This document shows, piece by piece, positions 6,001 through 9,000 of a DNA stretch of 64,000 nt. The position numbers were made by a program. Numbering within the stretch: position 1 is the first letter of the stretch; every line of letters begins with the position of its first letter. The stretch is from Escherichia coli (GTDB taxonomy: Bacteria; Pseudomonadota; Gammaproteobacteria; Enterobacterales; Enterobacteriaceae), in the NCBI RefSeq assembly GCF_001677475.2, contig NZ_CP015229.1; one strand, 5' to 3'.

Positions 6001-9000
6001 TGGGTATTTTTCATTCTCTAATGTTTTAACTTTGTAATTATTGCTGAAAAAAAATTAATCACCTGCCAAAAGAAATAAAAAAGAGAAAGCCTCCGATTAA
6101 ATTATTTCGCTACACTGGTTCCACTTTTGTGATTTACACGGGTTACCCATGAAGCTGACCATCATTCGATTAGAAAAATTTAGCGACCAGGACCGGATTG
6201 ACCTGCAAAAGATCTGGCCGGAGTATTCCCCTTCCTCGTTACAGGTTGACGATAACCACCGTATCTACGCCGCGCGTTTTAACGAGCGCCTGCTCGCTGC
6301 CGTACGGGTAACCTTAAGCGGCACCGAGGGAGCACTGGATTCCCTGCGCGTGCGGGAAGTCACTCGACGTCGCGGTGTGGGGCAATATCTGCTGGAAGAG
6401 GTTTTGCGTAACAATCCTGGCGTTTCATGCTGGTGGATGGCGGATGCAGGCGTGGAAGATCGCGGTGTGATGACGGCGTTTATGCAGGCACTGGGATTTA
6501 CGGCACAGCAGGGCGGCTGGGAGAAGCGTTAATCGCTCTGTGTAAAAAGCAGTTCAATGGATTTGGTTGGGAAAAATAACGCATTTTCGTTTTCCCCGAC
6601 TAAAGGGATAAAGCCCAGCGATTTATAAAACGTATGGGCTTTTTCATTCAGCGCCTCGACAAAAAGACCGTGAATACCTACCGCTAAAGAGGCTGACCAG
6701 ACGACTTTCATGGCATGAGCAACAACTAGCGTTCAATCACCAGTTATCCCGGAAAACACCTCAAGTTGTTTTGCTGAGCGTTGTAATTTTTCGCCAGGTG
6801 AAGGCGATTTACCCAGTGCATCCATCACTCGCGCCCATGAAGTCTCATTAAGTATTATGCGCTGATGTTGTTCAATAATTTCTAACGCCTGCAGGTGAGC
6901 GCTACTCAATATAAACTGGCTTAAGGACTGTTGGGATATCGCAGCTGCCGTTTCAAACAAACATTTATCATCATCAGTTAAAGACAGCGCAATATGCTGA
7001 TTTTCAACAACAGACATAGTGATTTCCCTTCCACTCATCAAATGTACGAAATACTATCGAGTCTCCAGCATAACTCAATTGATCAATCTTTCTACAACCA
7101 TTTCGACAAACATAAAAAACCCGATGGCAGTGCAGCGCATCGGGCATTTTCATTTACGAGATTGCTGGCAAACTAGCTCACTTATTAATACGGGTACGGT
7201 TTTACCCCTCACCCTAACCCTCTCCCCGAAGGGGCGAGGGGACTGTCCGAGCGCTTTTGAACTTTGTCATCAATCTGATTTATCTGACAATTACTTCGCA
7301 TCGGTCGCCGTGCCGTTGGCGTGCCAGTCAAATACGCCGAACTCAAAGCCTTTCAGATCGCCTTTCTCATCCCACGTCAGCGGCCCCATCACCGTATCAA
7401 CCGAGTTCGCTTTCAGGTATTTGGCGATCTCCGCCGGATCGTCAGACTGATTCAGCCCCGCCTGCAAAGATTGCAGCGCCGCGTAGGTGGTCCAGACGAA
7501 TGCGCCGCTTGGATCCTGTTTTTTCGCTTTGATCGCGTCAACAATCGGTTTGTTCGCCGGAACCTGATCGTAGTTCTTCGGCTTGGTCACCAGCAGTCCT
7601 TCCGCTGACTCGCCCGCGATATTAGACAGCGAGACGTTAGCCACACCTTCCGGCCCCATAAACTGAGTTTTCAGCCCCGCCGCGCGCGCCTGACGCAGGA
7701 TCTGCCCCATTTCCGGGTGATAACCGCCGTAGTAAACGAAGTCGATATTCTCTTTCTTCAGGCGTGCCACCAGCGTCGAGAAATCTTTTTCCCCGGCGGT
7801 GATGCCATCAAAGAACACTACGTTAGCATTGCCTTTCTTCAGGCCGTCCTGCACCGCACGCGCCAGACCTTCGCCGTACTGTTGTTTGTCGTGAACGATA
7901 GCAATACGCTGCGGTTTCACTTTCTCAAGAATATATTTTGCCGCCGTCGGCCCCTGGTCGGAATCCAGGCCGGTGGTGCGCAGGATCAGCTGATAGCCAC
8001 GGGCAGTCAGCTCTGGCGCGGTTGCCGCTGGGGTGATCATTAAAATGCCTTCGTCTTCATAAATGTCAGACGCTGGCTGTGTTGATGAAGAACAGAGGTG
8101 ACCAATGACATATTTAATGCCGTCGTTAACCACTTTGTTCGCCACCGCGACGGCCTGTTTCGGGTCACAGGCATCGTCATATTTTACGATTTGCAGTTTA
8201 TTGCCTTTAATGCCGCCTTTAGCGTTGATATCCGCAACCGCCTGCTCTGCGCCGGTAAACTCCTGATCGCCGTACTGCGCAACCGGACCGGACATTGCGC
8301 CCACGACGGCGACTTTAATATCTTCTGCCAGAGCCATATTGCTGAATGCCAGCGCGATACATCCTGCCAGTAACGCTTTACCCTTTATGTTCATCCTGAG
8401 AATCCCCATTCTTCTGGTTATTACGTGTGTTGTGATGTTGTTGTTCAGCACTTTATTTCGTTTTATGCATGACTACCCGTGCTTTAGCAGCATACTCTGC
8501 TAAAACATACCCGATTTTTATGATATTGGAATAGCTATTTTGACAGTTTATTAACAATCTGCGTGGGGATTGGCGTTTTGCCGGAGGGGGAAACTGATTA
8601 TTGCAGAGGCCCAAAAAACAAAAACCCCGGATTCTCATCCAGGGTTCTCTGCTTAGTAGCGGAAATTACGCTTCAATGGCAGCGCGAAGTTTTTTCATCG
8701 CGTTCTTTTCCAGCTGGCGCACACGCTCAGCGGAAACACCGTAACGGTCAGCCAGTTCCTGCAACGTGGACTTGTTGTCTTCGTCCAGCCAGCGCGCGCG
8801 GATGATATCCTGGCTACGCTCGTCCAGACCTTGCATCGCGTCGGTCAGACGGTTTGCCGCCTGCTCTTCCCAGTTATCATCTTCGATGCCGTCGGCAAAG
8901 TTAGATGATTTATCCTGCAGATAGAGCACCGGTGCCATCGGCTGGCTGTCGGAATCGTCGTCGGAAGACAGGTCAAAGGTCATGTCCTGTGCCGCCATAC

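Follow-up and report, generated by a model that had tools for sequence, protein, structure and literature searches.

Which repeat family accounts for the same GC-rich, seemingly palindromic sequence at two intergenic sites of this Escherichia coli chromosome, and does it do anything there? Within the window, i.e. the whole analysed stretch of 64,000 nucleotides (assembly GCF_001677475.2, contig NZ_CP015229.1), one copy lies behind livJ (site 1) and the other between zntA and tusA (site 2). Both are copies of BoxC, a dispersed intergenic repeat of E. coli that is already known and in itself ordinary. This family identity is established here together with the orthology of site 2, the copy number, a presence/absence polymorphism at site 1 and its relation to an inverted doublet. 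The two cores are:

7205..7241, minus strand: BoxC/TMECO type A core of site 1, C-CCCTCGCCC-CTTCG-GGGAGAGGG-TTA-GGGTGAGGG-G, an exact match to the consensus
17423..17459, plus strand: BoxC/TMECO type A core of site 2, C-CCCTCGCTC-CTCTG-GGGAGAGGG-TTA-GGGTGAGGG-G

The first-pass annotation had recognized one repeat in opposite orientations, and this is borne out: 7205-7227 (+) and 17437-17459 (-) share the 23-nt string CCCCTCACCCTAACCCTCTCCCC without a mismatch, and the inverted repeat pair 7201-7252/17412-17463 spans 52 nt with 85% complementarity (0 expected by chance), in agreement with pairwise alignment. Even with 3 mismatches allowed, CCCCTCACCCTAACCCTCTCCCC is not matched anywhere else in the window, and 100 shuffles yielded no match. 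The BoxC/TMECO consensus, CCCTCNCCC-N3-6-GGGNGAGGG-N3-GGGNGAGGG (Holder et al., 2015; PMC4666352), is matched exactly by site 1 at 7206-7240 (-), with 0 expected by chance, and by site 2 with one C>T substitution in block 1 (CCCTCGCTC). The shuffles and the consensus match rule out chance similarity of the two sites. Moreover, the 36-nt core string of site 1 occurs 43 times in identical form in Table S8 of Holder et al. (2015). The intervals first given, 7196-7250 and 17417-17462, point to the right places with slightly misplaced ends, and a unit of about 40 bp falls short of the full copies, which with their family-conserved flanks reach from about 7201 to 7271 and from 17403 to 17463. As a C-rich block is followed by two G-rich blocks, each copy combines an imperfect hairpin with a third block and is no simple palindrome. 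The G-rich strand is the minus strand at site 1 and the plus strand at site 2.

The proposal of a dispersed intergenic family distinct from REP also stands, and among the catalogued families named for comparison it is boxC that fits, whereas REP and ERIC do not. The REP consensus is GCCGGATGCGGCGTGAACGCCTTATCCGGCCTAC; at up to 3 mismatches it matches the window only at 729-762 and at neither BoxC site, which rules out REP membership. REP, BIME and REPIN elements resemble BoxC in being short, GC-rich, imperfect palindromes of intergenic 3' regions that often form inverted doublets, vary among strains and occupy the same spacers in alternative alleles. However, the sequences are unrelated, BoxC lacks a GTAG-type head and a known RAYT-like partner, and only BoxC has a third block. 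ERIC/IRU elements are likewise enterobacterial intergenic repeats with terminal inverted repeats, and their length of about 127 bp is close to that of the 122-nt unit at site 1 (see below). The central core of ERIC, the ERIC2 primer sequence AAGTAAGTGACTGGGGTGAGCG, was not found in the window even with 3 mismatches allowed, and with the sequences unrelated this family is ruled out as well. An Rfam scan of the whole window at the gathering threshold found no family.

BoxC has been described repeatedly and under several names, with no proven function: BoxC by Bachellier/Hofnung and Blattner (1997), PIT element by Hoyne and Maher (2000, 2002), TMECO, here type A, by Holder et al. (2015; PMC4666352) and HPG1/HPG2 by Kaplan et al. 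(2016; PMC5100583). A search for newer functional work on BoxC retrieved only the latter two studies. The copies studied here share with the published family the three-block consensus, the type A loop TTA, the 'A mm' mismatch between blocks 1 and 2, the intergenic position, about 20 copies per genome and the conserved 5' flank. Differences are the extra C>T of site 2 and the locus of site 1, which holds no BoxC copy in MG1655; in addition, the 122-nt unit of site 1 with its terminal inverted repeats is not described in Holder et al. (2015) or Kaplan et al. (2016).

A genome-wide search, which had been suggested from the start, confirmed that the repeat is multi-copy. The 60-nt query around site 1 matched a median of 19 and a maximum of 34 BLAST places per genome and was present in 5,425 of the 5,426 complete E. 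coli genomes. For comparison, 23 TMECO copies are reported for MG1655 (Holder et al., 2015; PMC4666352), and the table of Petrillo et al. lists 22–32 copies of BoxC with a 56-bp unit, the latter citing Bachellier. No annotated feature lies under the BLAST matches, and both window copies lie between genes, as do the 12 MG1655 loci examined. The window copies share with 16 MG1655 copies a 5' flank of the form AAAGYGCNCGGACRGT. No orientation bias was found among singleton copies (11): co-directional gene pairs hold three copies in sense and two in antisense, convergent pairs being uninformative. This gives no orientation preference, in agreement with the literature.

Each copy has a single pyrimidine block (CCCTCNCCC) and a pair of purine blocks (GGGAGAGGG and GGGTGAGGG), so that a single strand can fold as a hairpin; according to the literature it could in vitro also adopt a purine-motif intrastrand triplex or a G-quadruplex. 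At site 1, block 1 pairs with block 2 with one mismatch and with block 3 completely, including one G.T wobble. At both sites, all 9 of 9 positions of block 3 against block 2 give allowed reverse-Hoogsteen triplets (G.G, A.A or T.A). The pattern GGGGAGAGGGTTAGGGTGAGGGG (four G3+ tracts, loops of 1–7 nt), a putative G-quadruplex, lies at 7205-7227 (-) and 17437-17459 (+), and two of the five G3N3G3N3G3N3G3+ motifs in the 64-kb window are the BoxC copies.

These motifs, canonical in both copies, bring up the proposal made for HPG1/HPG2 that the G-rich strand acts as a regulatory DNA switch, toggling among three states (duplex, hairpin, and G-quadruplex or triplex) and thereby modulating transcription of the neighboring genes. 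The G-tract sequence of HPG1, GGGAGAGGGTTAGGGTGAGGG, is identical here, the core is strongly conserved across phyla, and circular dichroism (CD) has provided evidence for hairpin and G-quadruplex forms in a study that lists the zntA-tusA copy (Kaplan et al., 2016; PMC5100583). However, ViennaRNA with the G-quadruplex option still favors the hairpin for both copies. Furthermore, CD and NMR of MG1655 oligonucleotides revealed an intrastrand triplex in vitro, with imino signals of the triplex and not of a G-quadruplex, while in vivo there was no DMS protection and local variability was raised (Holder et al., 2015; PMC4666352). Promoter and terminator activity tests of BoxC by Hoyne and Maher were negative as cited in Holder et al. 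(PMC4666352). In our data, promoter and terminator scans called nothing at either core, and distance to the genes and orientation vary among copies. Almost no E. coli genome carries the site 1 copy, and nothing indicates that livJ depends on it. The present data, unlike the HPG1 proposal, lend no support to regulation, and we regard a switch at these loci as very improbable.

We favor a simpler reading, in which the copies would be structure-prone repeats that are tolerated and persist only where spacers near the 3' ends of genes are non-coding. Gain, loss and remodeling would take place locally, in part through slippage between the repeated blocks of a copy. Most likely, they have no dedicated function at these loci. 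That both sequences are BoxC copies and in all likelihood serve no purpose of their own at livJ and zntA/tusA is a reading that, as a whole, we hold with high confidence.

Site 2 had been placed after zntA, which is correct; it lies between the convergent genes zntA and tusA. Adjoining its core are:

17403..17422, plus strand: conserved 5' flank of the site 2 unit (CAACATTGAGCGCGATCGGT), aligned with 16 MG1655 copies
17460..17503, minus strand: hairpin followed by UUUU on the tusA strand (RNA fold -21.9 kcal/mol, z = -1.55, i.e. weak)

The zntA-tusA spacer of MG1655 is 99% identical over 160 nt, and the C>T in block 1, which also occurs in strain FDAARGOS_1286, is the only difference in the core. 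The orthologous copy at 3,608,684-3,608,719 of MG1655 is TMECO no. 16 (Table 1, entry 16, and also Table S2 of Holder et al., 2015) and HPGQ 40 in Table 1 of Kaplan et al. (2016; PMC5100583). With at least 80% coverage in 5,030 of 5,426 genomes, site 2 is an old, stable copy common to most E. coli. In strain M7424 the core is deleted and the 5' flank is still there. Within the flank, 17414-17422 pairs with 17395-17403 in the RNA fold, forming a 9-bp hairpin. The hairpin at 17460..17503 adjoins the BoxC core, its U-run being the complement of the AAAA after the core; by its predicted fold it is a possible tusA terminator, which the terminator scan did not call.

For site 1 the context had to be corrected. 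It had been described as following a convergent gene pair, but the copy lies directly after livJ (-) and a toxin-antitoxin (TA) remnant separates it from panM, so that its immediate neighbors are co-directional. At this locus, the 3' UTR of livJ beside an AtaT/TacA remnant, MG1655 has no BoxC copy. The following features surround the core:

7242..7278, minus strand: flank conserved on the 5' side of the A-type BoxC unit, with its GATGACAAAG box, plus the outer terminus TCAGATTGATGACAAAG TTCAAAAGCGCTCGGACAGT
7157..7181, plus strand: left terminus of a 122-nt unit (CGAGATTGCTGGCAAACTAGCTCAC), which repeats the right terminus imperfectly in inverted orientation
7157..7288, no strand: segment absent from empty-site alleles, which have 8 nt instead (TCTATCCG or TCTATCTG)
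7114..7150, minus strand: intrinsic-terminator-like hairpin with U6 downstream of livJ (RNA fold -23.4 kcal/mol, z = -4.07)

The BoxC unit is thus placed between the livJ stop codon (7291-7293) and the hairpin at 7114..7150. None of 200 shuffles was equally stable as this hairpin, which is kept in empty-site alleles and was overlooked by a simple terminator scan owing to its loop length. The BoxC core itself does not qualify as an intrinsic terminator, since GTAAAA or GAAAA comes after it and no U-tract; the terminator-like hairpin of livJ is separate.

Both copies are in sense, 35–50 nt past the stop codon of livJ or zntA and upstream of terminator-like hairpins. In this position they would be transcribed, which leaves room for a role at the RNA level, either as a REP-like guard against 3'-to-5' exonucleases or in shaping 3' ends. 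The cores, folded on both strands, are predicted to form stable RNA hairpins of -25 to -29 kcal/mol, and REP clusters fill the same spacers in alternative alleles. However, the z-scores of these folds (-0.9 to -2.1) are unremarkable for the base composition, so that structural significance alone does not single out the BoxC cores, and the hairpin lacks a U-tract after it. Other copies are antisense within operons (pstA-pstB, yihS-yihR) or upstream of genes, and our literature search found no published data on stabilization. An RNA-level function therefore appears improbable, and tolerated repeats remain our preferred reading of both copies.

How, then, did site 1 acquire its copy? Besides the window itself, 9 other genomes among 5,426 complete ones of E. 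coli have a filled livJ site, defined as at least 80% coverage of 7030-7295. Alignments revealed an identical empty junction in VCSW5, which is near-identical and has the same TA-remnant haplotype (97.7% identity over the adjoining 127 nt), and in the divergent E24377A with intact ataRT; the flanks of filled and empty sites are at least 97% identical. Since near-identical haplotypes have the empty site, the 122-nt unit is probably a lineage-specific gain, the direction following by parsimony from the two empty alleles.

The 5' flank of site 1 is common to the MG1655 copies at gntP, gcvP, fepB, yihS and alx-sstT and to the ppc-argE copy of GPEC856; GATGACAAAGNNNAAAAGYGC, at 7251-7271, has no other match in the window. 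The segment 7157..7181 aligns with the left ends of the ygfF-gcvP A+B doublet of MG1655 and of the GPEC856 ppc-argE unit, and pairs with 7262-7278 in the single-stranded DNA fold. From this sequence comparison it would be what is left of the outer end of a B-type half that was lost. The 122-nt unit and the ygfF-gcvP doublet are colinear except for 64–65 nt, bounded by CCCCTC direct repeats, that the unit lacks; it resembles the inverted BoxC doublets of MG1655 after an internal deletion, the deletion being a presumed mechanism. The internally deleted derivative also occurs at the unrelated locus ppc-argE, in 284 genomes. By direct inspection, 11 of 17 positions of the termini of the 122-nt unit match; they pair in the fold and are conserved at three loci. 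Alternatively, these termini may be nothing more than the outer ends of a pair of BoxC half-units in inverted orientation.

The sharp ends of this polymorphism and the shared empty junction suggest another explanation, i.e. that BoxC is a non-autonomous mobile element (MITE-like or REPIN-like) served by a transposase in trans, and site 1 a recent transposition. What is copied to new intergenic sites would be the inverted A+B doublet, or its deletion derivative that ends in imperfect terminal inverted repeats. This overlaps with the reading preferred here and adds to it a specific mechanism of spreading. In its favor, CGAGATTGCTGGCAAAC and TCAGATTGATGACAAAG at the two ends are imperfect inverted repeats of each other and are conserved at ygfF-gcvP and ppc-argE, and the same derivative is found at livJ and ppc-argE. 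However, there is no clean target-site duplication at livJ: the unit has ATTTA to its left and right, and the empty site has it a single time, but of the 8 bases that come next, 4 are not those of the empty allele. Neither target-site duplications nor matching flanking repeats were found at ygfF-gcvP or ppc-argE. At an identity of only about 84%, the two full-length derivative copies are too divergent for either to have recently given rise to the other, and no donor copy of the livJ unit was identified. No candidate transposase is known, and Holder et al. (2015; PMC4666352) saw no link to mobile elements. The derivative could also have arisen independently, by repeated deletions between the same direct repeats. 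Recombinational replacement of alleles fits equally well, as REP clusters occupy alternative alleles at ppc-argE and panM-livJ; a comparison of filled and empty sites at ppc-argE encountered such clusters and no empty site. A plasmid search with the 758-bp spacer returned no full-length copy, its best matches being to the GNAT toxin gene and not to the repeat. On balance, transposition appears rather doubtful, and local gain, loss and remodeling of tolerated BoxC copies is the reading that we retain.

Among the matches listed, the core is nearly invariant in distant phyla (Polaromonas, Mitsuaria, Archangium, Contendobacter and several MAGs), where N1, N2 and N3 are almost always T or G, A and T. 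Inverted doublets also appear in Polaromonas and Mitsuaria among these matches, and in other taxa the core sits inside longer, genome-specific repeat units; both observations would agree with mobility. A core this invariant hints at sequence-specific recognition or selection, which pure neutrality would explain poorly. It is conceivable, if unlikely, that the BoxC core is the conserved module of a class of small non-autonomous mobile elements across phyla, namely REPIN-like inverted doublets and their deletion derivatives, which a conserved protein would mobilize or recognize. The livJ copy would then be a recent insertion, seen as a filled/empty polymorphism.

The classification itself matters little, as it assigns two GC-rich palindromes to a family known since the 1990s. 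The doublet, its deletion derivative at two loci, the conserved termini and the cross-phylum core bear on how BoxC spreads and why its core is conserved. In addition, the near-isogenic filled and empty alleles of livJ form a pair suited to testing the effect of a BoxC copy in a 3' UTR on mRNA fate or genome stability. Many literature matches to 'boxC' concern the boxC of rRNA antitermination, which is unrelated to the repeat.

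The window carries TTTTACCCCTCACCCTAACCCTCTCCCCGAAGGGGCGAGGGGACTGTCCGAGC at 7196-7250 and, at 17417-17462, GGTCCCCTCGCTCCTCTGGGGAGAGGGTTAGGGTGAGGGGAAAA, a near reverse complement of the first sequence. The two share an identical 23-nt run (7205-7227 on the plus strand, 17437-17459 on the minus strand) that has no third match in the window at up to three mismatches and 0 matches in 100 shuffles, and as a pair they rank first among the inverted repeats of the window (85% complementarity over 52 nt; a pairwise alignment was also made). This confirms the claim of the first-pass annotation that one repeat occurs in inverted orientation at two sites; the two locations stand, but the exact coordinates were slightly shifted.

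Both sequences are ordinary copies of BoxC, an intergenic E. coli repeat also called PIT element, TMECO, or HPG1, and the finding is real and already known. A consensus pattern published by Holder et al. (2015; PMC4666352) has a single exact match in the window, 7206-7240 on the minus strand (site 1, downstream of livJ), where 0 are expected by chance; site 2, between zntA and tusA, differs from it by one base (CCCTCGCTC). In both copies the second loop is TTA (type A), and blocks 1 and 2 show the mismatch termed "A mm" for TMECO (Holder et al., 2015). The zntA-tusA spacer of MG1655 is 99% identical to that of the window over 160 nt, and its BoxC copy at 3,608,684-3,608,719 is exactly entry 16 in Table 1 of Holder et al. 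and is also present in their Table S2. Kaplan et al. (2016; PMC5100583) list this copy as HPGQ 40, a member of their "HPG1" G-quadruplex/hairpin group. Among the 823 copies that Holder et al. list from 56 strains, the 36-nt core of site 1 is found unchanged 43 times. Known stem-loop families of E. coli are BoxC (50-56 bp, 22-32 copies), PU-BIME, and ERIC (Petrillo et al., 2008). Comparison with the catalogued families thus assigned both copies to BoxC, and the first reading of a dispersed intergenic family distinct from REP was right in outline. The REP consensus matches the window only at 729-762 (with three mismatches), within a canonical inverted REP pair (BIME) at 729-831, in agreement with the REP units annotated near 729-828. 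The ERIC core has no match in the window, and Rfam yielded zero matches across it.

A 60-nt query around site 1 matched 5,425 of 5,426 complete E. coli genomes, at a median of 19 and a maximum of 34 places per genome; nearly all matches were chromosomal and 0 lay under annotated features. For comparison within MG1655, 12 loci from Table 1 of Holder et al. and two further doublets (inverted pairs of A-type and B-type half-units) were used. Beyond the core, the copies compared have a common 5′ flank with the pattern AAAGYGCNCGGACRGT, and in many of them a GATGACAAAG box lies ~30 nt upstream, so that the family unit exceeds the ~40 bp originally proposed.

The BoxC core consists of one pyrimidine and two purine blocks, with the following sequences and predicted interactions:

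Block 1, G-rich strand: CCCTCGCCC (at site 2, CCCTCGCTC)
Block 2, G-rich strand: GGGAGAGGG
Block 3, G-rich strand: GGGTGAGGG
Block 1 to block 2: pairing with one mismatch
Block 1 to block 3: complete pairing, including one G.T wobble
Block 3 to block 2: 9/9 reverse-Hoogsteen triplets permitted in a purine-motif triplex

Blocks 2 and 3 combined form a canonical four-tract G-quadruplex motif, and two of the five such motifs in the window stem from the BoxC copies. A role as a G-quadruplex or hairpin regulatory switch could be envisaged for such a sequence, and it finds little positive support: the energy model favors the hairpin even with its G-quadruplex option on. Promoter and terminator scans called none at the core of either site. 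According to Holder et al. (2015), oligonucleotides formed a triplex in vitro, DMS footprinting revealed no protection in vivo, and promoter and terminator activity was absent in the earlier work of Hoyne and Maher cited there.

Site 2 lies between the convergent genes zntA (stop 17387-17389) and tusA (stop 17491-17493), with a 9-bp hairpin immediately upstream and a hairpin followed by UUUU adjoining it on the tusA strand. Site 1 lies downstream of livJ (minus strand; stop 7291-7293) and is separated from panM by a toxin-antitoxin remnant (6529-7041, minus strand):

6733-7041, minus strand: intact TacA-family antitoxin ORF (Pfam TacA1, E = 1.2e-17)
6529-6726, minus strand: truncated AtaT acetyltransferase toxin gene (no Pfam match; annotated pseudogene in SC418 and VCSW5)

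At this locus the antitoxin persists as an orphan while its toxin has decayed; in other strains the ataRT pair is intact (E24377A) or neither gene is present (MG1655). At 7114-7150 the livJ (minus) strand has a strong terminator-like hairpin with U6 (z = -4.07), whose loop length caused the simple terminator scan to miss it. With A6 before the stem and TTTT after it on the plus strand, this hairpin may be bidirectional. The site 1 unit sits between this hairpin and the livJ stop codon and is so probably part of the livJ 3′ UTR. That BoxC stabilizes RNA in 3′ UTRs has little positive support: predicted RNA hairpins range from -20.6 to -29 kcal/mol, with z-scores modest for this composition. Orientation relative to genes followed no consistent rule, convergent pairs being uninformative and the five co-directional pairs among the MG1655 loci examined comprising three sense and two antisense; Holder et al. 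(2015) and Kaplan et al. (2016) likewise give no orientation rule.

Site 2 is kept at ≥80% coverage in 5,030 of 5,426 genomes. Two variants were examined: FDAARGOS_1286, which has a REP cluster insertion of ~170 bp separating BoxC from the zntA stop and a C>T change in common with the window, and M7424, where a small hypothetical ORF (309 nt) and REPs are present, the BoxC core is deleted, and the 5′ flank is retained. Site 1 is far rarer, its full BoxC allele (7030-7295) being found in only 9 of 5,426 genomes. At least four panM-livJ alleles exist in E. coli: a REP pair (in MG1655, whose panZ(panM)-livJ spacer is 187 bp), an intact ataRT module (E24377A), and the toxin-antitoxin remnant without or with BoxC. 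VCSW5 has the remnant haplotype of the window (97.7% identity over the adjoining 127 nt) with the site empty, and its junction, CATTTA|TCTATC(C/T)G|TTACTTCGC, is identical in the divergent E24377A haplotype; parsimony thus favors a gain of site 1 in one lineage. The window has 132 nt (7157-7288) where empty alleles have 8 nt. ATTTA flanks a core segment of 121-122 nt on either side, but four of the next eight bases are unlike the empty site, which leaves a target-site duplication unproven. The reading as a mobile element of MITE or REPIN type has little positive support.

The site 1 unit (7157-7278) recurs in the ppc-argE spacer of GPEC856 and others (84-85% identity over ~130 nt). This copy is present in 284 genomes, and other genomes examined, including MG1655, have REP clusters there; REP clusters and BoxC units thus alternate between strains at this spacer as well. 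Both units are colinear with the inverted A+B doublet of MG1655 ygfF-gcvP (TMECO 10 and 11), except for an internal gap of 64-65 nt that removes the B-type core and spacer and whose edges are CCCCTC direct repeats (the B copy contributes its block 1, the A copy the complement of its block 3). As judged from this alignment, the window unit therefore combines an entire A-type half with the outermost 25 nt of a B-type half that is otherwise lost. The two ends of the unit, CGAGATTGCTGGCAAAC and TCAGATTGATGACAAAG, are imperfect inverted repeats of each other and pair in the predicted single-stranded DNA fold; no description of them was found in the published BoxC, TMECO, or HPG1 accounts examined. 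Holder et al. (2015) describe a "palindrome effect" and degenerate copies around TMECO loci, as well as raised local variability there; the unit is in line with all of these. Most likely, both sequences are BoxC copies without a dedicated role at their loci, site 2 being an old, stable copy and site 1 a lineage-specific gain of a rearranged doublet. The repeated C and G blocks favor folding when single-stranded, as well as slippage or recombination, which fits the local variability at both loci.

An exact-consensus scan with one genome per species found at least 120 stretches. Among the matches listed, many copies per genome occurred in Polaromonas, Mitsuaria, Archangium, Contendobacter, an unclassified MAG, and others, some as inverted pairs, and the variable positions were nearly always N1 = T or G, N2 = A, and N3 = T (148 instances). 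This wide range agrees with the >260 genomes mentioned by Holder et al. (2015), and the recurrence of so similar a core across taxa is the chief argument against treating the element as purely neutral. In each taxon the core is embedded in a different, longer, genome-specific repeat, and different small elements may reuse it as a module. The MAG GL140_5 has an identical three-block core inside a ~110-nt unit with TTAG at start and end; in a Polaromonas MAG the core is followed by a conserved hairpin with a 10-bp stem (ATTGAGCGTT...AAACGCTCAAT).

Elsewhere, a 300-nt direct repeat at 4796-5095 and 7465-7764 (78% identity) stems from the paralogy of livK and livJ, which encode binding proteins, and is not a repeat element. 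Direct repeats of ~100 nt at 38290-38392 and 51089-51192 (94-97% identity, 12.8 kb apart) lie in the low-GC part (35-46% GC over most of 34-54 kb) and may represent duplicated regulatory regions or mark the boundaries of an island. The adjacent long ORFs 33028-34650 and 34912-36603 (minus strand), in the lowest-GC segment (35% GC), have a 63-nt stretch in common (33636-33698 and 35460-35522; 79% identity), which suggests tandem paralogues. Finally, 45018-48740 (plus strand) encodes a 1,240-aa AIDA-type autotransporter adhesin (Pfam ESPR, 11 AIDA repeats, Pertactin, and Autotransporter beta-domain), whose internal repeats recur at multiples of 57 nt and explain the repeat families D1, D2, D4, and D5.
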